Assembly (NCBI GenBank): GCA_964016885.1
Contig: OZ024744.1
Coordinates: 136,028,001-136,092,000, forward strand
Source of the DNA: Eledone cirrhosa
Taxonomy: Eukaryota
Direction: 5' to 3'
Length of the DNA: 64,000 nt
A program made the translations under genes and the position numbers. This document shows, piece after piece, positions 7,066-37,400 of the stretch (positions are counted from its first letter, which is position 1; every line of letters starts with the position of its first letter). The notes beneath the pieces were generated by a model. That model had not been told where the DNA came from and searched no databases. It was given only the letters and a program-made list of their open reading frames with translations.

Positions 7066-7147
7066 ATGCTCGTGCACACGAAAACACACACTCTCGCATA
7101 CCTCTATCACTTTCGATAATGTCACCACCACCACCACTATCACTGTC

Positions 7148-7557: not shown

Positions 7558-7576
7558 GCTCTGTAAAGTGGTAGTG

Positions 7577-10051: not shown

Positions 10052-10146
10052 ATATATATATATTTGGCTAAATGTCAATAACACAAACAAAATATTATCA
10101 ATGCCAAATTAAAAAGAAATATTCAAATAATACCACTTACAAGATT

Positions 10147-11840: not shown

Positions 11841-11845
11841 ATATA

Positions 11846-12412: not shown

Positions 12413-12415
<3 letters not shown>
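11846..12415 (+). mobile_element. Internally deleted Tc1-like DNA transposon (570 bp)
   Basis: ~90-bp TIRs CAGGGGTTGGACAAAATAATGGAAACACC.../...GGTGTTTCCATTATTTTGTCCAACCCCTG with TA on both sides. Confidence 0.93.
12035..12373 (+). pseudogene. Truncated Tc1 transposase (N-terminal HTH DNA-binding region only)
   Basis: MPDLSDFQRGQIVGARMAGASV..TAEIFGVSRSTVSKV...SGRKP...TAPKITAELN, then runs into the right TIR. No DDE domain. Confidence 0.85.

Positions 12416-12471
<56 letters not shown>
12416..12471. repeat. (TA)n microsatellite
   Basis: Perfect TA run starting at the Tc1 target TA. Confidence 0.95.
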
Positions 12472-12476
<5 letters not shown>

Positions 12477-12492
12477 ATATCTTTGTAGATCC

Positions 12493-12840
12493 TAGACCTG
12501 GGCACAGTGTGCAGAGGGCCTGCAAAGATTGGAAAGAAATGAAGCCTGCATGCTTGGATAGATGTGTAATACATGAATGGCAAAGCATAAACGAACTGAG
12601 AAACTGGGCATAACAGGAATAAGATGCAATGTGGAGGAGAGGAGATTACGTATATATTGGACTCTTTGTTTCAAGGACACAACAATCAGTCTAGTGTTGG
12701 TGCCATGAGAAAATGTACCCGGTACACTCTGTAAAGTTTTGAAATGTATGTAAGCAAAATGTGGGGCCCCCAACTCTTCATCTTTGTCTAAGAAATGACA
12801 AAACACTTAGTACTGGTGCCATGACAAAATATCCATGGTA
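12493..12840 (+). mobile_element. Old RTE 3' fragment
   Basis: ACCTGGGCACAGTGTGCAGAG...GAAGCCTGCATGCT...GGCAAAGCATAAACGAACT resembles 9090-9230. GTGCCATGA..AAAAT.TACCC units resemble the 3' UTR repeats. Confidence 0.6.
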
Positions 12841-13182
12841 GATTGTTGAGATGCAAGATGTGAAACCCTGGCCCAACTAAGAGGTCATTAGTACTGATCC
12901 GTCTGTGACTACCTATTCAACACTTAACGGACAATATATGATAATATCTATATATTAATATGCTTATACCTACGTACTGTATGTCCAACTGTGTGTCACA
13001 CTTTCAGTAATTACATAGTAATTTATCTGCTGTTGAAAAAAAATCCCTATTATACATACAATAATTTGATGTAATGCCTTGCACCGAATATTTTCTTTCA
13101 TTGTCTTATTTATTATTCACCGCCCAAGAACAACTTCAACTCCCAACAGAAGAAATTATATATTTTATATTACTGTTGTGAG

Positions 13183-13315
13183 GTAAGTTGAAGATTGATA
13201 ATACACTCTATTTTTACCTCCGCCAAATAGGTAATGCTTTATCCTCGCATAGTTTGTTTGTTTTGTTTTAAGTTTTTATTTCTGACAAACATCATCTCTA
13301 ACCACTTTCTTATAG
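13183..13315 (+). other. Putative spliceosomal intron in the 5' UTR of the repeat ORF
   Basis: Donor AG|GTAAGT at 13183, T-rich body, CTAAC branch motif at 13298-13302, acceptor CTTTCTTATAG at 13315 (alternative AGs at 13318 and 13322). Confidence 0.55.
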
Positions 13316-13359
13316 CAGCTAGGTGTTCTTCATAATTACTGAAACAACCATTCTTAAAA

Positions 13360-13494
13360 ATGGAAGATAGAATAAGTCAACAAAGAGAGGCAGCGAGAGA
13401 GTGACAAAGAAGACTATGACAGCGGTTACGAGCAGAAGAGAGGCAAACAAACCGTGACTGTAATCGAGAACAAATGTAAGAAAGGAGGAATGAT
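13360..13494 (+). pseudogene. Degenerate in-frame N-terminal leader of the repeat ORF
   Basis: AAAAATGG start. Reads MEDRISQQREAARE*QRRL*QRLRAEERQTNRDCNREQM*ERRND, 45 codons in frame with ATG 13495, with stops at 13402, 13417 and 13477. Confidence 0.7.
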
Positions 13495-16400
13495 ATGAAC
13501 CAAGAGGAGAGAGAAGCTTCTCTACAGAATAGAAGTGGAGATCATGATAGAAGAAATAACATGAATCCAGAGGAGAGAGAAGCTTATCTACAGAATAGAA
13601 GAAGTGGAGATCATGATAGAAGAAATAACATGAATCCAGAGGAGAGAGAAGTTTATCTACAGAATAGAAGAAGTGGAGATCATGATAGAAGAAATAACAT
13701 GAATCCAGAGGAGAGAGAAGTTTATCTACAGAATAGAAGTGGAGATCATGATAGAAGAAATAACATGAATCCAGAGGAGAGAGAAGCTTATCTACAGAAT
13801 AGAAGAAGTGGAGATCATGATAGAAGAAATAACATGAATCCAGAGGAGAGAGAAGCTTCTCTACAGAATAGAAGTGGAGATCATGGTAGAAGAAATAACA
13901 TGAATCCAGAGGAGAGAGAAGTTTATCTACAGAATAGAAGAAGTGGAGATCATGACAGAAGAAATAACAGGAATCCAGAGGAGAGAGAAGTTTATCTACA
14001 GAATAGAAGTGGAGATCATGGTAGAAGAAATAACATGAATCCAGAGGAGAGAGAAGTTTATCTACAGAATAAAAGAAGTGGAGATCATGGTAGAATAAAT
14101 AACATGAATCCAGAGGAGAGAGAAGTTTATCTACAGATTAAAAGAAGTGGAGATCATGGTAGAAGAAATAACATGAATCCAGAGGAGAGAGAGGCTTATC
14201 TACAGAATAGAAGTGGAAATCATGATAGAAGAAATAACATGAATCCAGAGGAGAGAGAAGCTTATCTACAGAATAGAAGTGGAGATCATGATAGAAGAAA
14301 TAACATGAATCCAGAAGAGAGAGAAGCTTATCTACAGAATAGAAGTGGAGATCATGATAGAAGAAATAACATGAATCCAGAGGAGAGAGTAGCTTATCTA
14401 CAGAATAGAAGTGAAGATCATGATAGAGGAAATAACATGAATCCAGAGGAGAGAGAAGTATTTCTACAGAATAGAAGAAGTGGAGATCATGGTAGAAGAA
14501 ATAACATGAATCCAGAGGAGAGAGAAGTTTATCTACAGAATAGAAGTGGAGATCATGATAGAAGAAATAACATGAATCCAGAGGAGAGAGTAGCTTATCT
14601 ACAGAATAGAAGAAGTGGAGATCATGATAGAAGAAATAACATGAATCCAGAGGAGAGAGAAGCTTCTCTACAGAATAGAAGTGGAGATCATGGTAGAAGA
14701 AATAACATGAATCCAGAGGAGAGAGAAGCTTATCTACAGAATAGAAGAAGTGGAGATCATGATAGAAGAAATAACATGAATCCAGAGGAGAGAGAAGCTT
14801 CTCTACAGAATAGAAGTGGAGATCATGGTAGAAGAAATAACATGAATCCAGAGGAGAGAGAAGTTTATCTACAGAATAGAAGAAGTGGAGATCATGATAG
14901 AAGAAATAACATGAATCCAGAGGAGAGAGAAGTTTATCTACAGAATAGAAGTGGAGATCATGATAGAAGAAATAACATGAATCCAGAGGAGAGAGAAGCT
15001 TATCTACAGAATAGAAGAAGTGGAGATCATGATAGAAGAAATAACATGAATCCAGAGGAGAGAGAAGCTTCTCTACAGAATAGAAGTGGAGATCATGGTA
15101 GAAGAAATAACATGAATCCAGAGGAGAGAGAAGTTTATCTACAGAATAGAAGTGGAGATCATGGTAGAAGAAATAACATGAATCCAGAGGAGAGAGAAGT
15201 TTATCTACAGAATAAAAGAAGTGGAGATCATGGTAGAAGAAATAACATGAATCCAGAGGAGAGAGAAGCTTATCTACAGAATAGAAGTGGAGATCATGGT
15301 AGAAGAAATAACATGAATCCAGAGGAGAGAGAAGTTTATCTACAGAATAGAAGAAGTGGAGATCATGACAGAAGAAATAACAGGAATCCAGAGGAGAGAG
15401 AAGTTTATCTACAGAATAGAAGTGGAGATCATGGTAGAAGAAATAACATGAATCCAGAGGAGAGAGAAGTTTATCTACAGAATAAAAGAAGTGGAGATCA
15501 TGGTAGAAGAAATAACATGAATCCAGAGGAGAGAGAAGTTCATCTACAGAATAAAAGAAGTGGAGATCATGGTAGAAGAAATAACATGAATCCAGAGGAG
15601 AGAGAAGTTTATCTACAGAATAGAAGAAGTGGAGATCATGACAGAAGAAATAACAGGAATCCAGAGAGAGAAGTTTATCGACAGAATAGAAGTGGAGATC
15701 ATGGTAGAAGAAATAACATGAATCCAGAGGAGAGAGAAGTTTATCTACAGAATAAAAGAAGTGGAGATCATGGTAGAAGAAGTAACATGAATCCAGAGGA
15801 GAGAGAAGTTTATCTACAGAATAAAAGAAGTGGAGATCATGGTAGAAGAAATAACATGAATCCAGAGGAGAGAGAAGCTTATCTACAGAATAGAAGAAGT
15901 GGAGATCATGATAGAAGAAATAACATGAATCCAGAGGAGAGAGAAGTTTATCAACAGAATAGAAGAAGTGGAGATCATGATAGAAGAAATAACATGAATC
16001 CAGAGGAGAGAGAAGTTTATCTACAGAATAGAAGTGGAGATCATGATAGAAGAAATAACATGAATCCAGAGGAGAGAGAAGCTTATCTACAGAATAGAAG
16101 AAGTGGAGATCATGATAGAAGAAATAACATGAATCCAGAGGAGAGAGAAGTTTATCTACAGAATAGAAGAAGTGGAGATCATGATAGAAGAAATAACATG
16201 AATCCAGACGAGAGAGAAGCTTCTCTACAGAATAGAAGTGGAGATCATGGTAGAAGAAATAACATGAATCCAGAGGAGAGAGAAGTTTATCTACAGAATA
16301 GAAGTGGAGATCATGGTAGAAGAAATAACATGAATCCAGAGGAGAGAGAAGTTTATCTACAGAATAAAAGAAGTGGAGATCATGGTAGAAGAAATAACAT

Positions 16401-19400
16401 GAATCCAGCGGAGAGAGAAGCTTATCTACAGAATAGAAGTGGAGATCATGGTAGAAGAAATAACATGAATCCAGAGGAGAGAGAAGTTTATCTACAGAAT
16501 AAAAGAAGTGGAGATCATGGTAGAAGAAATAACATGAATCCAGCGGAGAGAGAAGCTTATCTACAGAATAGAAGTCGAGATCATGGTAGAAGAAATAACA
16601 TGAATCCAGAGGAGAGAGAAGTATTTCTACAGAATAGAAGAAGTGGAGATCATGGTAGAAGAAATAACATGAATCCAGAGGAGAGAGAAGTTTATCTACA
16701 GAATAGAAGTGGAGATCATGATAGAAGAAATAACATGAATCCAGAGGAGAGAGAAGCTTATCTACAGAATAGAAGAAGTGGAGATCATGATAGAAGAAAT
16801 AACATGAATCCAGAGGAGAGAGAAGCTTCTCTACAGAATAGAAGTGGAGATCATGGTAGAAGAAATAACATGAATCCAGAGGAGAGAGAAGTTTATCTAC
16901 AGAATAGAAGTGGAGATCATGGTAGAAGAAATAACATGAATCCAGAGGAGAGAGAAGTTTATCTACAGAATAAAAGAAGTGGAGATCATGGTAGAAGAAA
17001 TAACATGAATCCAGAGGAGAGAGAAGCTTATCTACAGAATAGAAGTGGAGATCATGGTAGAAGAAATAACATGAATCCAGAGGAGAGAGAAGTTTATCTA
17101 CAGAATAGAAGAAGTGGAGATCATGACAGAAGAAATAACAGGAATCCAGAGGAGAGAGAAGTTTATCTACAGAATAGAAGTGGAGATCATGGTAGAAGAA
17201 ATAACATGAATCCAGAGGAGAGAGAAGTTTATCTACAGAATAAAAGAAGTGGAGATCATGGTAGAAGAAATAACATGAATCCAGAGGAGAGAGAAGTTCA
17301 TCTACAGAATAAAAGAAGTGGAGATCATGGTAGAAGAAATAACATGAATCCAGAGGAGAGAGAAGTTTATCTACAGAATAGAAGAAGTGGAGATCATGAC
17401 AGAAGAAATAACAGGAATCCAGAGAGAGAAGTTTATCGACAGAATAGAAGTGGAGATCATGGTAGAAGAAATAACATGAATCCAGAGGAGAGAGAAGTTT
17501 ATCTACAGAATAAAAGAAGTGAAGATCATGGTAGAAGAAGTAACATGAATCCAGAGGAGAGAGAAGTTTATCTACAGAATAAAAGAAGTGGAGATCATGG
17601 TAGAAGAAATAACATGAATCCAGAGGAGAGAGAAGCTTATCTACAGAATAGAAGAAGTGGAGATCATGATAGAAGAAATAACATGAATCCAGAGGAGAGA
17701 GAAGTTTATCAACAGAATAGAAGAAGTGGAGATCATGATAGAAGAAATAACATGAATCCAGAGGAGAGAGAAGTTTATCTACAGAATAGAAGTGGAGATC
17801 ATGATAGAAGAAATAACATGAATCCAGAGGAGAGAGAAGCTTATCTACAGAATAGAAGAAGTGGAGATCATGATAGAAGAAATAACATGAATCCAGAGGA
17901 GAGAGAAGTTTATCTACAGAATAGAAGAAGTGGAGATCATGATAGAAGAAATAACATGAATCCAGACGAGAGAGAAGCTTCTCTACAGAATAGAAGTGGA
18001 GATCATGGTAGAAGAAATAACATGAATCCAGAGGAGAGAGAAGTTTATCTACAGAATAGAAGTGGAGATCATGGTAGAAGAAATAACATGAATCCAGAGG
18101 AGAGAGAAGTTTATCTACAGAATAAAAGAAGTGGAGATCATGGTAGAAGAAATAACATGAATCCAGCGGAGAGAGAAGCTTATCTACAGAATAGAAGTGG
18201 AGATCATGGTAGAAGAAATAACATGAATCCAGAGGAGAGAGAAGTTTATCTACAGAATAAAAGAAGTGGAGATCATGGTAGAAGAAATAACATGAATCCA
18301 GCGGAGAGAGAAGCTTATCTACAGAATAGAAGTCGAGATCATGGTAGAAGAAATAACATGAATCCAGAGGAGAGAGAAGTATTTCTACAGAATAGAAGAA
18401 GTGGAGATCATGGTAGAAGAAATAACATGAATCCAGAGGAGAGAGAAGTTTATCTACAGAATAGAAGAAGTGGAGATCATGACAGAAGAAATAACAGGAA
18501 TCCAGAGGAGAGAGAAGTTTATCTACAGAATAGAAGTGGAGATCATGGTAGAAGAAAAAACATAAATCCAGAGGAGAGAGAAGTTTATCTACAGAATAAA
18601 AGAAGTGGAGATCATGGTAGAAGAAATAACATGAATCCAGAGGAGAGAGAAGTTTATCTACAGAATAAAAGAAGTGGAGATCATGGTAGAAGAAATAACA
18701 TGAATCCAGAGGAGAGAGAGGCTTATCTACAGAATAGAAGTGGAAATCATGATAGAAGAAATAACATGAATCCAGAGGAGAGAGAAGCTTATCTACAGAA
18801 TAGAAGTGGAGATCATGATAGAAGAAATAACATGAATCCAGAGGAGAGAGAAGCTTATCTACAGAATAGAAGTGGAGATCATGATAGAAGAAATAACATG
18901 AATCCAGAGGAGAGAGTAGCTTATCTACAGAATAGAAGTGGAGATCATGATAGAAGAAATAACATGAATCCAGAGGAGAGAGAAGTATTTCTACAGAATA
19001 GAAGAAGTGGAGATCATGGTAGAAGAAATAACATGAATCCAGAGGAGAGAGAAGTTTATCTACAGAATAGAAGTGGAGATCATGATAGAAGAAATAACAT
19101 GAATCCAGAGGAGAGAGAAGCTTATCTACAGAATAGAAGAAGTGGAGATCATGATAGAAGAAATAACATGAATCCAGAGGAGAGAGAAGCTTCTCTACAG
19201 AATAGAAGTGGAGATCATGGTAGAAGAAATAACATGAATCCAGAGGAGAGAGAAGCTTATCTACAGACTAGAAGAAGTGGAGATCATGATAGAAGAAATA
19301 ACATGAATCCAGAGGAGAGAGAAGCTTCTCTACAGAATAGAAGTGGAGATCATGGTAGAAGAAATAACATGAATCCAGAGGAGAGAGAAGTTTATCTACA

Positions 19401-22400
19401 GAATAGAAGAAGCGGAGATCATGATAGAAGAAATAACATGAATCCAGAGGAGAGAGAAGTTTATCTACAGAATAGAAGTGGAGATCATGATAGAAGAAAT
19501 AACATGAATCCAGAGGAGAGAGAAGCTTATCTACAGAATAGAAGAAGTGGAGATCATGATAGAAGAATTAACATGAATCCAGAGGAGAGAGAAGCTTCTC
19601 TACAGAATAGAAGTGGAGATCATGGTAGAAGAAATAACATGAATCCAGAGGAGAGAGAAGTTTATCTACAGAATAGAAGTGGAGATCATGGTAGAAGAAA
19701 TAACATGAATCCAGAGGAGAGAGAAGTTTATCTACAGAATAAAAGAAGTGGAGATCATGGTAGAAGAAATAACATGAATCCAGAGGAGAGAGAAGCTTAT
19801 CTACAGAATAGAAGTGGAGATCATGGTAGAAGAAATAACATGAATCCAGAGGAGAGAGAAGTTTATCTACAGAATAGAAGTGGAGATCATGATAGAAGAA
19901 ATAACATGAATCCAGAGGAGAGAGAAGTTTATCTACAGAATAGAAGAAGTGGAGATCATGACAGAAGAAATAACAGGAATCCAGAGGAGAGAGAAGTTTA
20001 TCTACAGAATAGAAGTGGAGATCATGGTAGAAGAAATAACATGAATCCAGAGGAGAGAGAAGTTTATCTACAGAATAAAAGAAGTGGAGATCATGGTAGA
20101 AGAAATAACATGAATCCAGAGGAGAGAGAAGTTTATCTACAGAATAGAAGTGGAGATCATGGTAGAAGAAATAACATGAATCCAGAGGAGAGAGAAGTTT
20201 ATCTACAGAATAGAAGAAGTGGAGATCATGATAGAAGAAATAACATGAATCCAGAGGAGAGAGAAGTTTATCTACAGAATAGAAGAAGTGGAGATCATGA
20301 TAGAAGAAATAACATGAATCCAGAGGAGAGAGAAGCTTATCTACAGAATAGAAGAAGTGGAGATCATGATAGAAGAAATAACATGAATCCAGAGGAGAGA
20401 GAAGTTTATCTACAGAATAGAAGAAGTGGAGATCATGATAGAAGAAATAACATGAATCCAGAGGAGAGAGAAGTTTATCTACAGAATAGAAGTGGAGATC
20501 ATGATAGAAGAAATAACATGAATCCAGAGGAGAGAGAAACTTATCTACAGAATAGAAGAAGTGGAGATCATGATAGAAGAAATAACATGAATCCAGAGGA
20601 GAGAGAAGCTTCTCTACAGAATAGAAGTGGAGATCATGGTAGAAGAAATAACATGAATCCAGAGGAGAGAGAAGTTTATCTACAGAATAGAAGTGGAGAT
20701 CATGGTAGAAGAAATAACATGAATCCAGAGGAGAGAGAAGTTTATCTACAGAATAGAAGAAGTGGAGATCATGATAGAAGAAATAACATGAATCCAGAGG
20801 AGAGAGAAGCTTCTCTACAGAATAGAAGTGGAGATCATGATAGAAGAAATAACATGAATCCAGAGGAGAGAGAAGTATTTCTACAGAATAGAAGAAGTGG
20901 AGATCATGGTAGAAGAAATAACATGAATCCAGAGGAGAGAGAAGTTTATCTACAGAATAGAAGTGGAGATCATGATAGAAGAAATAACATGAATCCAGAG
21001 GAGAGAGAAGTTTATCTACAGAATAGAAGTGGAGATCATGGTAGAAGAAATAACATGAATCCAGAGGAGAGAGAAGTTTATCTACAGAATAGAAGAAGTG
21101 GAGATCATGATAGAAGAAATAACATGAATCCAGAGGAGAGAGAAGCTTCTCTACAGAATAGAAGTGGAGATCATGATAGAAGAAATAACATGAATCCAGA
21201 GGAGAGAGAAGTATTTCTACAGAATAGAAGAAGTGGAGATCATGGTAGAAGAAATAACATGAATCCAGAGGAGAGAGAAGTTTATCTACAGAATAGAAGT
21301 GGAGATCATGATAGAAGAAATAACATGAATCCAGAGGAGAGAGAAGCTTATCTACAGAATAGAAGAAGTGGAGATCATGATAGAAGAAATAACATGAATC
21401 CAGAGGAGAGAGAAGCTTCTCTACAGAATAGAAGTGGAGATCATGGTAGAAGAAATAACATGAATCCAGAGGAGAGAGAAGCTTATCTACAGAATAGAAG
21501 AAGTGGAGATCATGATAGAAGAAATAACATGAATCCAGAGGAGAGAGAAGCTTCTCTACAGAATAGAAGTGGAGATCATGGTAGAAGAAATAACATGAAT
21601 CCAGAGGAGAGAGAAGTTTATCTACAGAATAGAAGAAGTGGAGATCATGATAGAAGAAATAACATGAATCCAGAGGAGAGAGAAGTTTATCTACAGAATA
21701 GAAGTGGAGATCATGATAGAAGAAATAACATGAATCCAGAGGAGAGAGAAGCTTATCTACAGAATAGAAGAAGTGGAGATCATGGTAGAAGAAATAACAT
21801 GAATCCAGCGGAGAGAGAAGCTTATCTACAGAATAGAAGTGGAGATCATGGTAGAAGAAATAACATGAATCCAGAGGAGAGAGAAGTATTTCTACAGAAT
21901 AGAAGAAGTGGAGATCATGGTAGAAGAAATAACATGAATCCAGAGGAGAGAGAAGTTTATCTACAGAATAGAAGTGGAGATCATGGTAAAAGAAATAACA
22001 TGAATCCAGAGGAGAGAGAAGCTTATCTACAGAATAGAAGTGGAGATCATGGTAGAAGAAATAACATGAATCCAGAGGAGAGAGAAGTTTATCTACAGAA
22101 TAGAAGAAGTGGAGATCATGACAGAAGAAATAACAGGAATCCAGAGGAGAGAGAAGTTTATCTACAGAATAGAAGTGGAGATCATGGTAGAAGAAATAAC
22201 ATGAATCCAGAGGAGAGAGAAGTTTATCTACAGAATAAAAGAAGTGGAGATCATGGTAGAAGAAATAACATGAATCCAGAGGAGAGAGAAGTTTATCTAC
22301 AGAATAAAAGAAGTGGAGATCATGGTAGAAGAAATAACATGAATCCAGAGGAGAGAGAGGGTTATCTACAGAATAGAAGTGGAAATCATGATAGAAGAAA

Positions 22401-25400
22401 TAACATGAATCCAGAGGAGAGAGAAGCTTATCTACAGAATAGAAGTGGAGATCATGATAGAAGAAATAACATGAATCCAGAGGAGAGAGAAGCTTATCTA
22501 CAGAATAGAAGTGGAGATCATGATAGAAGAAATAACATGAATCCAGAGGAGAGAGTAGCTTATCTACAGAATAGAAGTGGAGATCATGATAGAAGAAATA
22601 ACATGAATCCAGAGGAGAGAGAAGTATTTCTACAGAATAGAAGAAGTGGAGATCATGGTAGAAGAAATAACATGAATCCAGAGGAGAGAGAAGTTTATCT
22701 ACAGAATAGAAGTGGAGATCATGATAGAAGAAATAACATGAATCCAGAGGAGAGAGAAGTTTATCTACAGAATAAAAGAAGTGGAGATCATGGTAGAAGA
22801 AATAACACGAATCCAGAGGAGAGAGAGGCTTATCTACAGAATAGAAGTGGAAATCATGATAGAAGAAATAACATGAATCCAGAGGAGAGAGAAGCTTATC
22901 TACAGAATAGAAGTGGAGATCATGATAGAGGAAATAACATGAATCCAGAGGAGAGAGAAGCTTATCTACAGAATAGAAGTGGAGATCATGATAGAAGAAA
23001 TAACATGAATCCAGAGGAGAGAGTAGCTTATCTACAGAATAGAAGTGGAGATCATGATAGAAGAAATAACATGAATCCAGAGGAGAGAGAAGTATTTCTA
23101 CAGAATAGAAGAAGTGGAGATCATGGTAGAAGAAATAACATGAATCCAGAGGAGAGAGAAGTTTATCTACAGAATAGAAGTGGAGATCATGATAGAAGAA
23201 ATAACATGAATCCAGAGGAGAGAGTAGCTTATCTACAGAATAGAAGAAGTGGAGATCATGATAGAAGAAATAACATGAATCCAGAGGAGAGAGAAGCTTC
23301 TCTACAGAATAGAAGTGGAGATCATGGTAGAAGAAATAACATGAATCCAGAGGAGAGAGAAGCTTATCTACAGAATAGAAGAAGTGGAGATCATGATAGA
23401 AGAAATAACATGAATCCAGAGGAGAGAGAAGCTTCTCTACAGAATAGAAGTGGAGATCATGGTAGAAGAAATAACATGAATCCAGAGGAGAGAGAAGTTT
23501 ATCTACAGAATAGAAGAAGTGGAGATCATGATAGAAGAAATAACATGAATCCAGAGGAGAGAGAAGTTTATCTACAGAATAGAAGTGGAGATCATGATAG
23601 AAGAAATAACATGAATCCAGAGGAGAGAGAAGCTTATCTACAGAATAGAAGAAGTGGAGATCATGATAGAAGAAATAACATGAATCCAGAGGAGAGAGAA
23701 GCTTCTCTACAGAATAGAAGTGGAGATCATGGTAGAAGAAATAACATGAATCCAGAGGAGAGAGAAGTTTATCTACAGAATAGAAGTGGAGATCATGGTA
23801 GAAGAAATAACATGAATCCAGAGGAGAGAGAAGTTTATCTACAGAATAAAAGAAGTGGAGATCATGGTAGAAGAAATAACATGAATCCAGAGGAGAGAGA
23901 AGCTTATCTACAGAATAGAAGTGGAGATCATGGTAGAAGAAATAACATGAATCCAGAGGAGAGAGAAGTTTATCTACAGAATAGAAGTGGAGATCATGAT
24001 AGAAGAAATAACATGAATCCAGAGGAGAGAGAAGTTTATCTACAGAATAGAAGAAGTGGAGATCATGACAGAAGAAATAACAGGAATCCAGAGGAGAGAG
24101 AAGTTTATCTACAGAATAGAAGTGGAGATCATGGTAGAAGAAATAACATGAATCCAGAGGAGAGAGAAGTTTATCTACAGAATAAAAGAAGTGGAGATCA
24201 TGGTAGAAGAAATAACATGAATCCAGAGGAGAGAGAAGTTTATCTACAGAATAGAAGTGGAGATCATGGTAGAAGAAATAACATGAATCCAGAGGAGAGA
24301 GAAGTTTATCTACAGAATAGAAGAAGTGGAGATCATGATAGAAGAAATAACATGAATCCAGAGGAGAGAGAAGTTTATCTACAGAATAGAAGTGGAGATC
24401 ATGATAGAAGAAATAACATGAATCCAGAGGAGAGAGAAGCTTATCTACAGAATAGAAGAAGTGGAGATCATGATAGAAGAAATAACATGAATCCAGAGGA
24501 GAGAGAAGCTTCTCTACAGAATAGAAGTGGAGATCATGGTAGAAGAAATAACATGAATCCAGAGGAGAGAGAAGTTTATCTAGAGAATAGAAGTGGAGAT
24601 CATGGTAGAAGAAATAACATGAATCCAGAGGAGAGAGAAGTTTATCTACAGAATAAAAGAAGTGGAGATCATGGTAGAAGAAATAACATGAATCCAGCGG
24701 AGAGAGAAGCTTATCTACAGAATAGAAGTGGAGATCATGATAGAAGAAATAACATGAATCCAGAGGAGAGAGAAGTATTTCTACAGAATAGAAGAAGTGG
24801 AGATCATGGTAGAAGAAATAACATGAATCCAGAGGAGAGAGAAGTTTATCTACAGAATAGAAGTGGAGATCATGATAGAAGAAATAACATGAATCCAGAG
24901 GAGAGAGAAGTTTATCTACAGAATAAAAGAAGTGGAGATCATGGTAGAAGAAATAACATGAATCCAGAGGAGAGAGAGGCTTATCTACAGAATAGAAGTG
25001 GAAATCATGATAGAAGAAATAACATGAATCCAGAGGAGAGAGAAGCTTATCTACAGAATAAAAGAAGTGGAGATCATGGTAGAAGAAATAACATGAATCC
25101 AGAGGAGAGAGAAGTTTATCTACAGAATAAAAGAAGTGGAGATCATGGTAGAAGAAATAACATGAATCCAGAGGAGAGAGAGGCTTATCTACAGAATAGA
25201 AGTGGAAATCATGATAGAAGAAATAACATGAATCCAGAGGAGAGAGAAGCTTATCTACAGAATAGAAGTGGAGATCATGATAGAAGAAATAACATGAATC
25301 CAGAGGAGAGAGAAGCTTATCTACAGAATAGAAGTGGAGATCATGATAGAAGAAATAACATGAATCCAGAGGAGAGAGTAGCTTATCTACAGAATAGAAG

Positions 25401-28400
25401 TGGAGATCATGATAGAAGAAATAACATGAATCCAGAGGAGAGAGAAGTATTTCTACAGAATAGAAGAAGTGGAGATCATGGTAGAAGAAATAACATGAAT
25501 CCAGAGGAGAGAGAAGTTTATCTACAGAATAGAAGTGGAGATCATGATAGAAGAAATAACATGAATCCAGAGGAGAGAGAAGCTTCTCTACAGAATAGAA
25601 GTGGAGATCATGGTAGAAGAAATAACATGAATCCAGAGGAGAGAGAAGCTTATCTACAGAATAGAAGAAGTGGAGATCATGATAGAAGAAATAACATGAA
25701 TCCAGAGGAGAGAGAAGCTTCTCTACAGAATAGAAGTGGAGATCATGGTAGAAGAAATAACATGAATCCAGAGGAGAGAGAAGTTTATCTACAGAATAGA
25801 AGTGGAGATCATGGTAGAAGAAATAACATGAATCCAGAGGAGAGAGAAGTTTATCTACAGAATAAAAGAAGTGGAGATCATGGTAGAAGAAATAACATGA
25901 ATCCAGAGGAGAGAGAAGTTTATCTACAGAATAAAAGAAGTGGAGATCATGGTAGAAGAAATAACATGAATCCAGAGGAGAGAGAAGTTTATCTACAGAA
26001 TAGAAGAAGTGGAGATCATGATAGAAGAAATAACATGAATCCAGAGGAGAGAGAAGTTTATCTACAGAATAGAAGAAGTGGAGATCATGACAGAAGAAAT
26101 AACAGGAATCCAGAGGAGAGAGAAGTTTATCTACAGAATAGAAGTGGAGATCATGGTAGAAGAAATAACATGAATCCAGAGGAGAGAGAAGTTTATCTAC
26201 AGAATAAAAGAAGTGGAGATCATGGTAGAAGAAATAACATGAATCCAGAGGAGAGAGAAGTTTATCTACAGAATAAAAGAAGTGGAGATCATGGTAGAAG
26301 AAATAACATGAATCCAGAGGAGAGAGAAGTTTATCTACAGAATAGAAGAAGTGGAGATCATGACAGAAGAAATAACAGGAATCCAGAGAGAGAAGTTTAT
26401 CTACAGAATAGAAGTGGAGATCATGGTAGAAGAAATAACATGAATCCAGAGGAGAGAGAAGTTTATCTACAGAATAAAAGAAGTGGAGATCATGGTAGAA
26501 GAAATAACATGAATCCAGAGGAGAGAGAAGTTTATCTACAGAATAAAAGAAGTGGAGATCATGGTAGAAGAAATAACATGAATCCAGAGGAGAGAGAAGC
26601 TTATCTACAGAATAGAAGAAGTGGAGATCATGATAGAAGAAATAACATGAATCCAGAGGAGAGAGAAGTTTATCAACAGAATAGAAGAAGTGGAGATCAT
26701 GATAGAAGAAATAACATGAATCCAGAGGAGAGAGAAGTTTATCTACAGAATAGAAGTGGAGATCATGATAGAAGAAATAACATGAATCCAGAGGAGAGAG
26801 AAGGTTATCTACAGAATAGAAGAAGTGGAGATCATGATAGAAGAAATAACATGAATCCAGAGGAGAGAGAAGTTTATCTACAGAATAGAAGAAGTGGAGA
26901 TCATGATAGAAGAAATAACATGAATCCAGACGAGAGAGAAGCTTCTCTACAGAATAGAAGTGGAGATCATGGTAGAAGAAATAACATGAATCCAGAGGAG
27001 AGAGAAGTTTATCTACAGAATAGAAGTGGAGATCATGGTAGAAGAAATAACATGAATCCAGCGGAGAGAGAAGCTTATCTACAGAATAGAAGTGGAGATC
27101 ATGGTAGAAGAAATAACATGAATCCAGAGGAGAGAGAAGTTTATCTCCAGAATAAAAGAAGTGGAGATCATGGTAGAAGAAATAACATGAATCCAGCGGA
27201 GAGAGAAGCTTATCTACAGAATAGAAGTCGAGATCATGGTAGAAGAAATAACATGAATCCAGAGGAGAGAGAAGTATTTCTACAGAATAGAAGAAGTGGA
27301 GATCATGGTAGAAGAAATAACATGAATCCAGAGGAGAGAGAAGTTTATCTACAGAATAGAAGAAGTGGAGATCATGACAGAAGAAATAACAGGAATCCAG
27401 AGGAGAGAGAAGTTTATCTACAGAATAGAAGTGGAGATCATGGTAGAAGAAATAACATGAATCCAGAGGAGAGAGAAGTTTATCTACAGAATAAAAGAAG
27501 TGGAGATCATGGTAGAAGAAATAACATGAATCCAGAGGAGAGAGAAGTTTATCTACAGAATAAAAGAAGTGGAGATCATGGTAGAAGAAATAACATGAAT
27601 CCAGAGGAGAGAGAGGCTTATCTACAGAATAGAAGTGGAAATCATGATAGAAGAAATAACATGAATCCAGAGGAGAGAGAAGCTTATCTACAGAATAGAA
27701 GTGGAGATCATGATAGAAGAAATAACATGAATCCAGAGGAGAGAGAAGCTTATCTACAGAATAGAAGTGGAGATCATGATAGAAGAAATAACATGAATCC
27801 AGAGGAGAGAGTAGCTTATCTACAGAATAGAAGTGGAGATCATGATAGAAGAAATAACATGAATCCAGAGGAGAGAGAAGTATTTCTACAGAATAGAAGA
27901 AGTGGAGATCATGGTAGAAGAAATAACATGAATCCAGAGGAGAGAGAAGTTTATCTACAGAATAGAAGTGGAGATCATGATAGAAGAAATAACATGAATC
28001 CAGAGGAGAGAGAAGCTTATCTACAGAATAGAAGAAGTGGAGATCATGATAGAAGAAATAACATGAATCCAGAGGAGAGAGAAGCTTCTCTACAGAATAG
28101 AAGTGGAGATCATGGTAGAAGAAATAACATGAATCCAGAGGAGAGAGAAGCTTATCTACAGAATAGAAGAAGTGGAGATCATGATAGAAGAAATAACATG
28201 AATCCAGAGGAGAGAGAAGCTTCTCTACAGAATAGAAGTGGAGATCATGGTAGAAGAAATAACATGAATCCAGAGGAGAGAGAAGTTTATCTACAGAATA
28301 GAAGAAGTGGAGATCATGATAGAAGAAATAACATGAATCCAGAGGAGAGAGAAGCTTATCTACAGAATAGAAGAAGTGGAGATCATGATAGAAGAAATAA

Positions 28401-31400
28401 CATGAATCCAGAGGAGAGAGAAGCTTCTCTACAGAATAGAAGTGGAGATCATGGTAGAAGAAATAACATGAATCCAGAGGAGAGAGAAGTTTATCTACAG
28501 AATAGAAGTGGAGATCATGGTAGAAGAAATAACATGAATCCAGAGGAGAGAGAAGTTTATCTACAGAATAAAAGAAGTGGAGATCATGGTAGAAGAAATA
28601 ACATGAATCCAGAGGAGAGAGAAGCTTATCTACAGAATAGAAGTGGAGATCATGGTAGAAGAAATAACATGAATCCAGAGGAGAGAGAAGTTTATCTACA
28701 GAATAGAAGTGGAGATCATGATAGAAGAAATAACATGAATCCAGAGGAGAGAGAAGTTTATCTACAGAATAGAAGAAGTGGAGATCATGACAGAAGAAAT
28801 AACAGGAATCCAGAGGAGAGAGAAGTTTATCTACAGAATAGAAGTGGAGATCATGGTAGAAGAAATAACATGAATCCAGAGGAGAGAGAAGTTTATCTAC
28901 AGAATAAAAGAAGTGGAGATCATGGTAGAAGAAATAACATGAATCCAGAGGAGAGAGAAGTTTATCTACAGAATAGAAGTGGAGATCATGGTAGAAGAAA
29001 TAACATGAATCCAGAGGAGAGAGAAGTTTATCTACAGAATAGAAGAAGTGGAGATCATGATAGAAGAAATAACATGAATCCAGAGGAGAGAGAAGTTTAT
29101 CTACATAATAGAAGAAGTGGAGATCATGATAGAAGAAATAACATGAATCCAGAGGAGAGAGAAGCTTATCTACAGAATAGAAGAAGTGGAGATCATGATA
29201 GAAGAAATAACATGAATCCAGAGGAGAGAGAAGTTTATCTACAGAATAGAAGAAGTGGAGATCATGATAGAAGAAATAACATGAATCCAGAGGAGAGAGA
29301 AGTTTATCTACAGAATAGAAGTGGAGATCATGATAGAAGAAATAACATGAATCCAGAGGAGAGAGAAGCTTATCTACAGAATAGAAGAAGTGGAGATCAT
29401 GATAGAAGAAATAACATGAATCCAGAGGAGAGAGGAGTTTATCTACATAATAGAAGAAGTGGAGATCATGGTAGAAGAAATAACATGAATCCAGAGGAGA
29501 GAGAAGTATTTCTACAGAATAGAAGAAGTGGAGATCATGGTAGAAGAAATAACATGAATCCAGAGGAGAGAGAAGTTTATCTACAGAATAGAAGTGGAGA
29601 TCATGGTAAAAGAAATAACATGAATCCAGAGGAGAGAGAAGCTTATCTACAGAATAGAAGTGGAGATCATGGTAGAAGAAATAACATGAATCCAGAGGAG
29701 AGAGAAGTTTATCTACAGAATAAAAGAAGTGGAGATCATGGTAGAAGAAATAACATGAATCCAGAGGAGAGAGAAGTTTATCTACAGAATAAAAGAAGTG
29801 GAGATCATGGTAGAAGAAATAACATGAATCCAGAGGAGAGAGAAGCTTATCTACAGAATAGAAGTGGAGATCATGGTAGAAGAAATAACATGAATCCAGA
29901 GGAGAGAGAAGTTTATCTACAGAATAAAAGAAGTGGAGATCATGGTAGAAGAAATAACATGAATCCAGCGGAGAGAGAAGCTTATCTACAGAATAGAAGT
30001 GGAGATCATGGTAGAAGAAATAACATGAATCCAGAGGAGAGAGAAGTTTATCTACAGAATAGAAGAAGTGGAGATCATGACAGAAGAAATAACAGGAATC
30101 CAGAGGAGAGAGAAGTTTATCTACAGAATAGAAGTGGAGATCATGGTAGAAGAAATAACATGAATCCAGAGGAGAGAGAAGTTTATCTACAGAATAAAAG
30201 AAGTGGAGATCATGGTAGACGAAATAACATGAATCCAGAGGAGAGAGAAGTTTATCTACAGAATAAAAGAAGTGGAGATCATGGTAGAAGAAATAACATG
30301 AATCCAGAGGAGAGAGAGGCTTATCTACAGAATAGAAGTGGAAATCATGAAAGAAGAAATAACATGAATCCAGAGGAGAGAGAAGCTTATCTACAGAATA
30401 GAAGTGGAGATCATGATAGAAGAAATAACATGAATCCAGAGGAGAGAGAAGCTTATCTACAGAATAGAAGTGGAGATCATGATAGAAGAAATAACATGAA
30501 TCCAGAGGAGAGAGTAGCTTATCTACAGAATAGAAGTGGAGATCATGATAGAAGAAATAACATGAATCCAGAGGAGAGAGAAGTATTTCTACAGAATAGA
30601 AGAAGTGGAGATCATGGTAGAAGAAATAACATGAATCCAGAGGAGAGAGAAGTTTATCTACAGAATAGAAGTGGAGATCATGATAGAAGAAATAACATGA
30701 ATCCAGAGGAGAGAGAAGTTTATCTACAGAATAAAAGAAGTGGAGATCATGGTAGAAGAAATAACACGAATCCAGAGGAGAGAGAGGCTTATCTACAGAA
30801 TAGAAGTGGAAATCATGATAGAAGAAATAACATGAATCCAGAGGAGAGAGAAGCTTATCTACAGAATAGAAGTGGAGATCATGATAGAAGAAATAACATG
30901 AATCCAGAGGAGAGAGAAGCTTATCTACAGAATAGAAGTGGAGATCATGATAGAAGAAATAACATGAATCCAGAGGAGAGAGTAGCTTATCTACAGAATA
31001 GAAGTGGAGATCATGATAGAAGAAATAACATGAATCCAGAGGAGAGAGAAGTATTTCTACAGAATAGAAGAAGTGGAGATCATGGTAGAAGAAATAACAT
31101 GAATCCAGAGGAGAGAGAAGTTTATCTACAGAATAGAAGTGGAGATCATGATAGAAGAAATAACATGAATCCAGAGGAGAGAGAAGCTTATCTACAGAAT
31201 AGAAGAAGTGGAGATCATGATAGAAGAAATAACATGAATCCAGAGGAGAGAGAAGCTTCTCTACAGAATAGAAGTGGAGATCATGGTAGAAGAAATAACA
31301 TGAATCCAGAGGAGAGAGAAGCTTATCTACAGAATAGAAGAAGTGGAGATCATGATAGAAGAAATAACATGAATCCAGAGGAGAGAGAAGCTTCTCTACA

Positions 31401-34400
31401 GAATAGAAGTGGAGATCATGGTAGAAGAAATAACATGAATCCAGAGGAGAGAGAAGTTTATCTACAGAATAGAAGAAGTGGAGATCATGATAGAAGAAAT
31501 AACATGAATCCAGAGGAGAGAGAAGTTTATCTACAGAATAGAAGTGGAGATCATGATAGAAGAAATAACATGAATCCAGAGGAGAGAGAAGCTTATCTAC
31601 AGAATAGAAGAAGTGGAGATCATGATAGAAGAAATAACATGAATCCAGAGGAGAGAGAAGCTTCTCTACAGAATAGAAGTGGAGATCATGGTAGAAGAAA
31701 TAACATGAATCCAGAGGAGAGAGAAGTTTATCTACAGAATAGAAGTGGAGATCATGGTAGAAGAAATAACATGAATCCAGAGGAGAGAGAAGTTTATCTA
31801 CAGAATAAAAGAAGTGGAGATCATGGTAGAAGAAATAACATGAATCCAGAGGAGAGAGAAGCTTATCTACAGAATAGAAGTGGAGATCATGGTAGAAGAA
31901 ATAACATGAATCCAGAGGAGAGAGAAGTTTATCTACAGAATAGAAGTGGAGATCATGATAGAAGAAATAACATGAATCCAGAGGAGAGAGAAGTTTATCT
32001 ACAGAATAGAAGAAGTGGAGATCATGACAGAAGAAATAACAGGAATCCAGAGGAGAGAGAAGTTTATCTACAGAATAGAAGTGGAGATCATGGTAGAAGA
32101 AATAACATGAATCCAGAGGAGAGAGAAGTTTATCTACAGAATAAAAGAAGTGGAGATCATGGTAGAAGAAATAACATGAATCCAGAGGAGAGAGAAGTTT
32201 ATCTACAGAATAGAAGTGGAGATCATGGTAGAAGAAATAACATGAATCCAGAGGAGAGAGAAGTTTATCTACAGAATAGAAGAAGTGGAGATCATGATAG
32301 AAGAAATAACATGAATCCAGAGGAGAGAGAAGTTTATCTACAGAATAGAAGAAGTGGAGATCATGATAGAAGAAATAACATGAATCCAGAGGAGAGAGAA
32401 GTTTATCTACAGAATAGAAGTGGAGATCATGATAGAAGAAATAACATGAATCCAGAGGAGAGAGAAGCTTATCTACAGAATAGAAGAAGTGGACATCATG
32501 ATAGAAGAAATAACATGAATCCAGAGGAGAGAGAAGCTTCTCTACAGAATAGAAGTGGAGATCATGGTAGAAGAAATAACATGAATCCAGAGGAGAGAGA
32601 AGTTTATCTACAGAATAGAAGTGGAGATCATGGTAGAAGAAATAACATGAATCCAGAGGAGAGAGAAGTTTATCTACAGAATAGAAGTGGAGATCATGAT
32701 AGAAGAAATAACATGAATCCAGAGGAGAGAGAAGTATTTCTACAGAATAGAAGAAGTGGAGATCATGGTAGAAGAAATAACATGAATCCAGAGGAGAGAG
32801 AAGTTTATCTACAGAATAGAAGTGGAGATCATGATAGAAGAAATAACATGAATCCAGAGGAGAGAGAAGTTTATCTACAGAATAAAAGAAGTGGAGATCA
32901 TGGTAGAAGAAATAACATGAATCCAGAGGAGAGAGAGGCTTATCTACAGAATAGAAGTGGAAATCATGATAGAAGAAATAACATGAATCCAGAGGAGAGA
33001 GAAGCTTATCTACAGAATAAAAGAAGTGGAGATCATGGTAGAAGAAATAACATGAATCCAGAGGAGAGAGAAGTTTATCTACAGAATAAAAGAAGTGGAG
33101 ATCATGGTAGAAGAAATAACATGAATCCAGAGGAGAGAGAAGTTTATCTACAGAATAGAAGTGGAAATCATGATAGAAGAAATAACATGAATCCAGAGGA
33201 GAGAGAAGCTTATCTACAGAATAGAAGTGGAGATCATGATAGAAGAAATAACATGAATCCAGAGGAGAGAGAAGCTTATCTACAGAATAGAAGTGGAGAT
33301 CATGATAGAAGAAATAACATGAATCCAGAGGAGAGAGTAGCTTATCTACAGAATAGAAGTGGAGATCATGATAGAAGAAATAACATGAATCCAGAGGAGA
33401 GAGAAGTTTATCTACAGAATAAAAGAAGTGGAGATCATGATAGAAGAAATAACATCAATCCAGAGGAGAGAGAAGTTTATCTACAGAATAGAAGAAGTGG
33501 AGATCATGATAGAAGAAATAACATGAATCCAGAGGAGAGAGAAGCTTCTCTACAGAATAGAAGTGGAGATCATGGTAGAAGAAATAACATGAATCCAGAG
33601 GAGAGAGAAGTATTTCTACAGAATAGAAGAAGTGGAGATCATGGTAGAAGAAATAACATGAATCCAGAGGAGAGAGAAGTTTATCTACAGAATAGAAGTG
33701 GAGATCATGATAGAAGAAATAACATGAATCCAGAGGAGAGAGAAGCTTATCTACAGAATAGAAGAAGTGGAGATCATGATAGAAGAAATAACATGAATCC
33801 AGAGGAGAGAGAAGCTTCTCTACAGAATAGAAGTGGAGATCATGGTAGAAGAAATAACATGAATCCAGAGGAGAGAGAAGCTTATCTACAGAATAGAAGA
33901 AGTGGAGATCATGATAGAAGAAATAACATGAATCCAGAGGAGAGAGAAGCTTCTCTACAGAATAGAAGTGGAGATCATGGTAGAAGAAATAACATGAATC
34001 CAGAGGAGAGAGAAGTTTATCTACAGAATAGAAGAAGTGGAGATCATGATAGAAGAAATAACATGAATCCAGAGGAGAGAGAAGTTTATCTACAGAATAG
34101 AAGTGGAGATCATGATAGAAGAAATAACATGAATCCAGAGGAGAGAGAAGCTTATCTACAGAATAGAAGAAGTGGAGATCATGATAGAAGAAATAACATG
34201 AATCCAGAGGAGAGAGAAGCTTCTCTACAGAATAGAAGTGGAGATCATGGTAGAAGAAATAACATGAATCCAGAGGAGAGAGAAGTTTATCTACAGAATA
34301 GAAGTGGAGATCATGGTAGAAGAAATAACATGAATCCAGAGGAGAGAGAAGTTTATCTACAGAATAAAAGAAGTGGAGATCATGGTAGAAGAAATAACAT

Positions 34401-37400
34401 GAATCCAGAGGAGAGACAAGCTTATCTACAGAATAGAAGTGGAGATCATGGTAGAAGAAATAACATGAATCCAGAGGAGAGAGAAGTTTATCTACAGAAT
34501 AGAAGTGGAGATCATGGTAGAAGAAATAACATGAATCCAGAGGAGAGAGAAGTTTATCTACAGAATAGAAGAAGTGGAGATCATGATAGAAGAAATAACA
34601 TGAATCCAGAGGAGAGAGAAGTTTATCTACAGAATAGAAGTGGAGATCATGATAGAAGAAATAACATGAATCCAGAGGAGAGAGAAGCTTATCTACAGAA
34701 TAGAAGAAGTGGAGATCATGATAGAAGAAATAACATGAATCCAGAGGAGAGAGAAGCTTCTCTACAGAATAGAAGTGGAGATCATGGTAGAAGAAATAAC
34801 ATGAATCCAGAGGAGAGAGAAGTTTATCTACAGAATAGAAGAAGTGGAGATCATGATAGAAGAAATAACATGAATCCAGAGGAGAGAGAAGTTTATCTAC
34901 AGAATAGAAGAAGTGGAGATCATGATAGAAGAAATAACATGAATCCAGAGGAGAGAGAAGCTTATCTACAGAATAGAAGAAGTGGAGATCATGATAGAAG
35001 AAATAACATGAATCCAGAGGAGAGAGAAGTTTATCTACAGAATAGAAGAAGTGGAGATCATGATAGAAGAAATAACATGAATCCAGAGGAGAGAGAAGTT
35101 TATCTACAGAATAGAAGTGGAGATCATGATAGAAGAAATAACATGAATCCAGAGGAGAGAGAAGCTTATCTACAGAATAGAAGAAGTGGAGATCATGATA
35201 GAAGAAATAACATGAATCCAGAGGAGAGAGAAGCTTCTCTACAGAATAGAAGTGGAGATCATGGTAGAAGAAATAACATGAATCCAGAGGAGAGAGAAGT
35301 TTATCTACAGAATAGAAGTGGAGATCATGGTAGAAGAAATAACATGAATCCAGAGGAGAGAGAAGTTTATCTACAGAATAAAAGAAGTGGAGATCATGGT
35401 AGAAGAAATAACATGAATCCAGAGGAGAGAGAAGTTTATCTACAGAATAAAAGAAGTGGAGATCATAGTAGAAGAAATAACATGAATCCAGAGGAGAGAG
35501 AGGCTTATCTACAGAATAGAAGTGGAAATCATGATAGAAGAAATAACATGAATCCAGAGGAGAGAGAAGCTTATCTACAGAATAGAAGTGGAGATCATGA
35601 TAGAAGAAATAACATGAATCCAGAGGAGAGAGAAGCTTATCTACAGAATAGAAGTGGAGATCATGATAGAAGAAATAACATGAATCCAGAGGAGAGAGTA
35701 GCTTATCTACAGAATAGAAGTGGAGATCATGATAGAAGAAATAACATGAATCCAGAGGAGAGAGAAGCTTATCTACAGAATAGAAGTGGAGATCATGATA
35801 GAAGAAATAACATGAATCCAGAGGAGAGAGTAGCTTATCTACAGAATAGAAGTGGAGATCATGATAGAAGAAATAACATGAATCCAGAGGAGAGAGAAGT
35901 ATTTCTACAGAATAGAAGAAGTGGAGATCATGGTAGAAGAAATAACATGAATCCAGAGGAGAGAGAAGTTTATCTACAGAATAGAAGTGGAGATCATGAT
36001 AGAAGAAATAACATGAATCCAGAGGAGAGAGAAGTTTATCTACAGAATAAAAGAAGTGGAGATCATGGTAGAAGAAATAACATGAATCCAGAGGAGAGAG
36101 AAGTTTATCTACAGAATAGAAGAAGTGGAGATCATGATAGAAGAAATAACATGAATCCAGAGGAGAGAGAAGTTTATCTACAGAATAGAAGTGGAGATCA
36201 TGATAGAAGAAATAACATGAATCCAGAGGAGAGAGAAGCTTATCTACAGAATAGAAGAAGTGGAGATCATGATAGAAGAAATAACATGAATCCAGAGGAG
36301 AGAGAAGCTTCTCTACAGAATAGAAGTGGAGATCATGGTAGAAGAAATAACATGAATCCAGAGGAGAGAGAAGTTTATCTACAGAATAGAAGTGGAGATC
36401 ATGGTAGAAGAAATAACATGAATCCAGAGGAGAGAGAAGTTTATCTACAGAATAAAAGAAGTGGAGATCATGGTAGAAGAAATAACATGAATCCAGAGGA
36501 GAGAGAAGTTTATCTACAGAATAGAAGAAGTGGAGATCATGACAGAAGAAATAACAGGAATCCAGAGGAGAGAGAAGTTTATCTACAGAATAGAAGTGGA
36601 GATCATGGTAGAAGAAATAACATGAATCCAGAGGAGAGAGAAGTTTATCTACAGAATAAAAGAAGTGGAGATCATGGTAGAAGAAATAACATGAATCCAG
36701 AGGAGAGAGAAGTTTATCTACAGAATAAAAGAAGTGGAGATCATGGTAGAAGAAATAACATGAATCCAGAGGAGAGAGAAGCTTATCTACAGAATAGAAG
36801 AAGTGGAGATCATGATAGAAGAAATAACATGAATCCAGAGGAGAGAGAAGCTTCTCTACAGAATAGAAGTGGAGATCATGGTAGAAGAAATAACATGAAT
36901 CCAGAGGAGAGAGAAGTTTATCTACAGAATAAAAGAAGTGGAGATCATGGTAGAAGAAATAACATGAATCCAGAGGAGAGAGAAGTTTATCTACAGAATA
37001 GAAGTGGAGATCATGGTAGAAGAAATAACATGAATCCAGAGGAGAGAGAAGTTTATCTACAGAATAAAAGAAGTGGAGATCATGATAGAAGAAATAACAT
37101 GAATCCAGAGGAGAGAGAAGTTTATCTACAGAATAGAAGAAGTGGAGATCATGATAGAAGAAATAACATGAATCCAGAGGAGAGAGAAGTTTATCTACAG
37201 AATAGAAGAAGTGGAGATCATGATAGAAGAAATAACATGAATCCAGAGGAGAGAGAAGCTTATCTACAGAATAGAAGAAGTGGAGATCATGATAGAAGAA
37301 ATAACATGAATCCAGAGGAGAGAGAAGTTTATCTACAGAATAGAAGAAGTGGAGATCATGATAGAAGAAATAACATGAATCCAGAGGAGAGAGAAGTTTA

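Follow-up and report, generated by a model that had tools for sequence, protein, structure and literature searches.

A satellite array of at least 50 kb that most likely grew from 23-residue repeats at the start of a dead Helitron gene

The stretch of Eledone cirrhosa DNA analyzed here, 64,000 nucleotides long and hereafter referred to as the window, carries a variety of features in its left part and a single tandem array over the remainder (Table 1). The gag and pol frames of the Ty3/gypsy-type element are broken by stops and shifts, the LINE scraps belong to what we take to be an RTE-like family, and the Tc1/mariner-like relic adjoins a (TA)n run (12416-12480). The exons upstream of the zinc-finger stretch would lie towards the Helitron-like element described below.

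Table 1. Features of the window (positions count from its first letter)
Feature	Position	Strand	Remarks
Ty3/gypsy-type LTR retrotransposon	1591-6673		LTRs at about 1592-1825 and 6437-6673, 97% identical
48-bp tandem repeat, 8.8 copies	7144-7556		related pair at 9552-9648
Reverse-transcriptase LINE scraps	7577-9430
Open 242-aa stretch with 8 C2H2 zinc fingers	10147-10875	-	points away from array
Tc1/mariner-like relic, internally deleted	11847-12409		HTH matches; apparent terminal inverted repeats
Candidate HLE1 Helitron left end, TC after host A, then TATA-rich	12947..12990	+	only TC-TATA pattern match in 1-13400
Putative 5' untranslated part of element, multi-copy	12991..13359	+	X1 depth 50-640 vs about 5 in flank
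Broken gene start, 45 codons, stops at codons 15, 20 and 40	13360..13494	+	from translation
Satellite array, 66/69-bp units head-to-tail	13495..64000	+	at least 50.5 kb, open at window end
First array unit (edge unit), 66 bp, MNQ start	13495..13560	+	its ATG opens 8,195-codon frame
Unit of the preliminary description, 69 bp / 23 aa	13561..13629	+	translation MNPEEREAYLQNRRSGDHDRRNN; type occurs 78 times
Single-base indel cluster	37978..38990	+	4 of 6 odd-length units, and one unit with compensated shift
35-bp unit	52713..52747	+	frameshifting internal deletion between GGAGA copies
68-bp unit	61043..61110	+	frameshift
Sole unit with in-frame stop (TAG, codon 5)	62464..62532	+

Between anchors the array comprises 746 whole units, of which 373 are 69 bp, 364 are 66 bp and three are 63 bp long, the other six having other lengths; the statement of the preliminary description that roughly half of the units lack one residue is thus borne out. 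About 16 monomer types are common and recur in irregular words, the match level is 94%, and block duplications are present, the clearest being a run of 46 identical units found at 38988 and at 42708. Rows with periods of 29, 47 and 48 bp returned by TRF were rejected as separate repeats, being sub-periods of the 66/69-bp array. The array is therefore satellite DNA in the sense of a long, homogenised head-to-tail array. Given the homogeneity of the units and the exactness of the 46-unit duplication, one could suppose that the length of the array is an artefact of assembling a short repeat; however, 90 distinct unit sequences are arranged in the irregular words just mentioned, and short-read contigs of run X1 reach depths of 8,000-12,700 in the array against about 5 in the flank (rough values, from a run that may not be independent of the assembly), which makes this explanation extremely improbable. 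The reading frame is kept in 740 of the 746 units. The frame opened at 13495 runs for 8,195 codons to a stop at 38082, inside the indel cluster, which may itself be an assembly error, and is followed past frameshifts by open frames of 4,587 and 2,810 codons.

To the left of the array, a TC preceded by A (12946-12948) agrees with the rule for the left end of HLE1 Helitrons, which begin with TC after a host A (PMC11417382), although such signals are common by chance; it lies 413 bp upstream of the broken gene start at 13360. The contigs of three runs switch from unique or absent to repeated at about 12947. Contig depth rises in run X1 from 4.9 (12869-12909) to 1378 (12951-12991) and in run X4 from 0 to 599 across the same boundary, where depth is not to be equated with copy number and the independence of X1 from the assembly is uncertain; a contig of run X6 has a loose end before 12944, and the flank is matched without difference by a unique X1 contig of 404 bp that stops 29 bases into the candidate element. 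From these observations we infer that the left end of the element lies at 12947. No second copy of 12991-13359 is present within the window. A possible GT-AG intron (13183-13315), with donor and acceptor motifs, offers a lead within this putative 5' part. An X6 contig with a loose end before window position 13249 ends in a GC hairpin followed by CTAG, like the right end of a Helitron; it adjoins sequence resembling 13249-13289 and represents another element in another organism.

The broken gene start consists of a lead and, in codons 23-45, one diverged 23-residue unit. It is homologous, from residue 1, to the Helitron transposase family and to a cassette found in octopus BTB and mantis-shrimp HMG-box proteins: the region matches P0003, an Octopus BTB protein, with 64% identity over 81 aa (E 4e-15) and the Helitron protein P0074 with 59% over 68 aa. 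At the positions of the three stops all five relatives carry R, R and Q, from each of which the stop is a single C-to-T step away, and the gene start would thus have been killed by C-to-T decay, a view that for codon 15 draws on the R of the five relatives. Other copies of the lead-in in run X1 have a 4-bp deletion at 13411 and G-to-A changes at CpG codons 22, 24 and 34; among the differences listed, they also have CGA and CAA at two of the window's stop positions and the Helitron-type residues S47 and I31. The window's own allele was not among the X1 contigs compared, and its three stops are those of the assembly.

The source of the repeat was sought with a profile (A1) built from two intact octopus cassettes and four array units, which matched 56 of the 1.84 billion proteins searched. 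Two of the matches, P0016 and P0035 from the amphipod Trinorchestia, and P0074, recovered in a further search, have the lead followed by two to six 23-residue units in one frame with Helitron sequence, and in these intact members of the HLE1 family the units sit just ahead of a Helraiser-like core. P0074 matches the Helraiser transposase (PDB 7lcc) with an E value of 1.5e-41, and P0075 and P0076, collinear with P0074, carry Helitron_like_N. The 23-residue repeat is therefore part of the N-terminus of the HLE1 transposase family, and the gene start at 13360 is, as judged by sequence, homologous to the start of that transposase. The window contains no cysteine motif, RepHel (Rep plus helicase) core or right end of the element, which in HLE1 consists of a 3' hairpin, CTRR and a host T; all of these would lie past the array, which runs off the window, and Helitron membership of this copy is accordingly read from the left end and the gene start. 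Lead-in residues 1-45 are identical at 27-33 of 45 positions among P0003 (octopus), P0012 (mantis shrimp), P0016 (amphipod) and P0074 (Helitron). This identity is high for the split between molluscs and crustaceans and hints at horizontal transfer of one Helitron family; it points to a family common to a mollusc and crustaceans.

The cassette-bearing host proteins are P0001-P0011 (Octopus BTB) and P0012 and P0068-P0072 (Oratosquilla HMG-box), and their genes carry the cassette at the start in some isoforms only. Between two Octopus species the cassette is identical at 106 of 114 residues and is as conserved as the BTB domain (114 of 125). It is possible that the octopus and mantis-shrimp cassettes are independent domestications. 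Canonical ET-type STPR-like units, scoring 14-15 bits and so under the cut-off, are found in alternative exons of the octopus BTB genes.

The main rival source of the array lies in these host genes, in that the octopus BTB ('Ken-like') gene, whose cassette had come earlier from a Helitron, could have undergone duplication of its first coding exon, the array arising in the dead copy, again as a neutral satellite. The Octopus BTB proteins match the window best, from residue 1, and are the nearest to its units (14-17 of 23 residues identical, against 9-14 of 23 for the Helitrons P0074 and P0016); this is, however, expected under either reading if both window and BTB copies derive from an octopus Helitron. 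A captured 5' end could also have carried the TC end along. At nine informative lead-in sites the window sides with the Helitrons five times and with BTB four times, and a seven-row tree does not separate a BTB copy from a Helitron copy. Against the duplicate, lead-in positions 10, 24, 35, 42 and 44 and unit position 18 are of Helitron type where both BTB orthologues share another residue, the X1 copies have S47 and I31 as Helitrons do, and the segment has the marks of a multi-copy family that begins abruptly on its left. Neither the BTB and other downstream exons nor the ET-type repeat exon found a match within the window; they would lie beyond the array. We regard a BTB-exon duplicate as unlikely, and an HLE1 Helitron copy, giving rise to a neutral, coding-derived satellite, as the probable source. 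In a separate matter, H18 was considered as CpG decay of R18 and this was rejected, H18 being found in intact Helitron units.

The preliminary description had also placed the unit in register with the STPR, which is defined as a repeat of strictly 23 residues with conserved Glu1, Thr/Ser2 and Arg9 (PMC4856987). The register was upheld when the four commonest 23-residue units were compared with nine units of P0043, a protein with a strong Pfam STPR match (168 bits): it was the best of the 23 rotations (z 4.8-5.1; among 5000 shuffles, a fraction no greater than 0.0006 attained that score in any rotation), in a test that is partly circular, the P0043 units having been drawn from the A1 profile's own matches. 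The seven identities to FMBP-1 repeat 1 (positions 4, 5, 6, 8, 10, 20 and 23) hold, that at A8 for A-type units only, and the repeat 1 sequence used in the preliminary description agrees with that of PDB 5d23. As to the proposed replacement of the E1/R9 pair by M1/Y9, E1 and R9 are indeed absent, but the change is not the array's own, since M1 and Y/F/H9 are invariant in 14 of 14 units of intact relatives; M1 and the aromatic residue at 9 are thus, by sequence comparison, ancestral to the family and not a product of decay, and may pack on each other.

Measured against the published definition, the array has 373 of 746 units of 23 residues and 364 of 22, whereas intact relatives keep the strict period save for one 22-residue unit in P0020. 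In place of E1, T/S2 and R9, the 373 long units have M1 (368), N2 (373) and Y/F/H9 (373). The array retains three (R6, L10 and R20) of the nine residues through which the STPR contacts DNA (R6, R9, L10, M13, S14, Y16, A17, R20 and L21), and intact Helitron units additionally keep M13, as does FMBP-1. The array is therefore not an STPR member by that definition (PMC4856987); it descends from an STPR-like repeat and is a distant relative of the STPR. A reading of the unit as a functioning STPR repeat is not supported: E1, T/S2 and R9 are absent, the basic residue at 16 is lost, purifying selection is not seen (see below) and three stops lie upstream.

The rival to this distant kinship is convergence, in which this Helitron family would have acquired independently a common type of capped helix start (x-N/T-P-E-E-R) with a 23-residue period. 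The Pfam STPRs model (PF21107), which was in the library searched and has a cut-off of 27 bits, matched none of three array stretches, none of three A1 members and none of the intact units. In a direct search of the library with the array, FMBP-1 appeared at E 0.59, behind the unrelated repeats of protein A, and was absent from the matches when four pure 23-residue units served as the query. Short matches to TFIIE-A_C, DUF7167, DUF3140 and protein A were set aside as helix-start look-alikes inflated by repetition. Foldseek found no match in the PDB for the array model or the intact-unit model, and in the ESM Atlas the STPR clusters were reached at 0.82-0.83 only, under the lead threshold of 0.9. 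The A1 profile itself also drew unrelated helical repeats. However, 42 of its 56 matches have a period of 23 and, considering the best five families per protein, seven of the 56 pass the PF21107 cut-off and four more score below it; one of these eleven proteins is the full RepHel protein P0060.

The STPR fold is a zig-zag in which 2-residue linkers connect helices of 21 residues. Structure prediction gave helices of this kind for the intact octopus units (four helices, 3-23 and so on, joined by 2-residue linkers; pLDDT 89) but not with similar confidence for the array units (pLDDT 63), which also have lower helix propensity and less charge than the intact ones. Among 48,161 chains, the top-ranked match to the predicted intact-unit model was 5d23, the structure of the STPR with DNA, aligned in exact register with an rmsd of 1.6 A over 64 residues; its Z of 6.7 falls short of what the tool considers safe when repeats are compared. 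For the array-unit model 5d23 again ranked first, but with a Z of 5.8 and an rmsd of 5.3 A, tied with coiled coils. Together with the in-register shuffle test, the M13 shared by Helitron units and FMBP-1 and the STPRs already known from HLE1 (PMC11417382), these results make convergence quite unlikely in our judgment.

The relatives also bear on the length of the ancestral unit, which the preliminary description had taken to be 69 bp. This is supported: since the 16 tabulated units of P0003, P0004, P0012, P0074 and P0016 (17 rows when the first, diverged unit of P0074 is counted) all have 23 residues with x13-R14, the 69-bp form is ancestral. Derivation of the 66-bp form by AGA slippage is plausible in so far as the 3-bp loss falls within the AGAAGAAG run; the mechanism itself is conjectural. 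V8 is the majority residue (428 of 737 units), A8 being found in A-type units only, and K replaces R at position 13 in 127 of the 373 long units. Both V8 or A8 and D19 or G19 occur in units of either length, which implies exchange between units or repeated slippage afterwards. Runs of organisms B, C and E (small-share runs, compared once) also yielded near-identical units, at low depth, and the monomer may therefore predate the host species.

We then consider whether the array is read as protein. The 49 rare single-base alleles comprise 8 synonymous, 40 non-synonymous and one stop allele, where 20.5, 74.7 and 4.8% are expected; the resulting dN/dS of 1.4 allows ratios up to 0.5 to be rejected (P 0.003), with the proviso that any assembly errors among the rare alleles would bias the estimate towards 1. 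The count skipped one unit type with a compensated frameshift and left out nine units of other lengths. Common variants are likewise mostly non-synonymous. The array thus shows no protein-level constraint, as befits a satellite. Stop alleles in the sense frame number one against 2.4 expected (P 0.31), and one antisense frame is nearly open, with a stop in 5 of 740 units; set against both figures, the single sense stop gives a weak, non-significant hint that the frame is protected. That an antisense frame is almost open too indicates that long frames come free with a homogeneous, stop-free monomer, and since 66 and 69 bp are each divisible by three and no stop interrupts the monomer, an open frame extends over kilobases at no cost. 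The 8,195-codon frame is most likely a by-product.

Were the array a live giant coding exon, entered at the ATG at 13495 or by a splice past the stops, it would encode a poly-STPR-like protein of 8,000 to more than 16,000 residues. Such an exon would account for a long frame with its own ATG, for the 740 of 746 units in frame and for the one sense stop against five antisense, and four of the six frameshifts fall within 1 kb, at 38044-38990, and resemble read errors. However, it is at odds with the dN/dS of 1.4, with three stops just upstream, with a strict 23-residue period broken by half of the units, and with units at 52713 and 61043 that shift the frame and one at 62464 that stops it. Moreover, the helix-breaking G16 is fixed (368 of 373 long units, R or K standing there in 14 of 14 intact-relative units) and G19 occurs in 340 of 737 units. 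We consider a live exon very unlikely. The more specific proposal, that the array is still read, its product being a DNA-coating filament made of an amplified DNA-binding repeat of the transposase, and that the clustered frameshifts are errors of assembly, appears equally remote.

The array is better seen as a coding-derived satellite than as a working STPR protein, and the following sequence of events would account for it. An HLE1 Helitron would have inserted with its left end at 12947, bringing a transposase gene that starts at 13360 and encoded a basic lead followed by a small number of STPR-like helical repeats, each of 23 residues (M-N-x-E-E-R-x-x-aromatic-L); a cysteine motif and the RepHel core lie downstream of the repeats in the relatives and presumably did so in this copy. 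In the live element the repeats probably wrapped AT-rich DNA, by analogy with STPR helices, which occupy its major groove at 4 bp per repeat. In Helraiser, DNA binding depends on the N-terminal 489 residues, a finding that does not single out the repeats (PMC4778049). The copy in the window would then have died through its three stops, one 69-bp coding unit would have drifted (N15S, R16G, E19D/G) and part of its copies would have lost 3 bp to give the 66-bp unit. Unequal exchange or slippage would have amplified and homogenised the unit to more than 740 satellite copies, a process in which rolling-circle copying may have assisted (PMC12628747). The steps read from the data are the array structure, the dead gene start, the homology to the HLE1 N-terminus, the neutral variation and the 23-residue ancestor. 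Junction, dead gene start and ancestral unit all being readable, one can follow how the array was born and homogenised, and the locus illustrates cleanly the origin of a satellite in a protein repeat. It also warns against assuming that a frame of 8,000 codons within a repeat array must be a gene.

A wider question is where the STPR comes from. HELIANO counts STPRs among captured domains, encoded in separate ORFs (PMC11417382; bioRxiv version; supplement S10, S11, as far as available), and 55,718 HLE1 elements are reported in Octopus sinensis, together with STPRs in HLE1 (PMC11417382). In P0060 and P0074, STPR or STPR-like repeats lie inside the transposase frame. P0060 (2436 aa) has RepHel, DUF6570 and Pfam STPRs in one frame, in contrast to the pattern given in the available text, where DUF6570 marks HLE2 and STPRs occur almost only in HLE1, in separate ORFs (PMC11417382). 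We put forward, with slightly less than even confidence, the reverse of the published capture reading, namely that STPR-type repeats are a native N-terminal module of Helitrons that hosts took up repeatedly (octopus BTB, mantis-shrimp HMG, perhaps FMBP-1 and ZNF821); we hold this likelier than the DNA-coating filament. A divergent STPR-like repeat tied both to a Helitron transposase frame and to octopus and mantis-shrimp genes makes the origin of the STPR DNA-binding domain testable.

A literature search in which subscription journals and Repbase were thinly covered turned up no paper dealing with the array, with the captures in octopus and shrimp or with any satellite that stems from a Helitron protein repeat. 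Satellites from Helitrons or transposon ORFs, and STPRs in HLE1, are already known, and in the sources available to us we found no description of a Helitron satellite derived from a protein repeat. With the STPR (PF21107; Bombyx FMBP-1, PDB 5d23; ZNF821) the array shares the 23-residue period, the register and R6, L10 and R20, and the predicted model of its intact relatives shares the 2-residue linker and 21-residue helix. Unlike the STPR, its family has M1/N2/aromatic-9 for E1/T-S2/R9 and lacks the Y16, S14, A17 and L21 contacts; the array has no Pfam match, half of its units are of 22 residues, its copies exceed 740 against three to seven (PMC4856987), and it is apparently not translated. 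With the HLE1 transposase N-terminus (Helraiser, PDB 7lcc; P0016, P0035, P0074-P0076) it has in common a homologous gene start and units, and the TC after A, but the window holds only the first 45 codons, with stops, and the repeat, amplified more than 100-fold, the core and right end not being seen within it. The octopus BTB 'Ken-like' (LOC106877738, LOC115209896, CAI9720157.1) and Oratosquilla HMG-box (LOC143040549, LOC143040684) genes have the same lead and three 23-residue units; unlike the window they are, as database gene models, intact, with the three units fused to host domains. Satellites arising in Helitrons include DINE-TR1 of Drosophila and Cg170/HindIII of oyster, and those from transposon ORFs include CficCl-61-40, from CACTA Tnp2, and LINE ORF2 cases (PMC12628747, PMC9659126). 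As in these, the array would have expanded inside a dead transposon of which one end is kept; however, whereas the Helitron-borne satellites described there derive from central tandem repeats of non-autonomous elements (PMC12628747, PMC9659126), the monomer described here is a codon-exact protein repeat of the transposase, hence its multi-kilobase frames.
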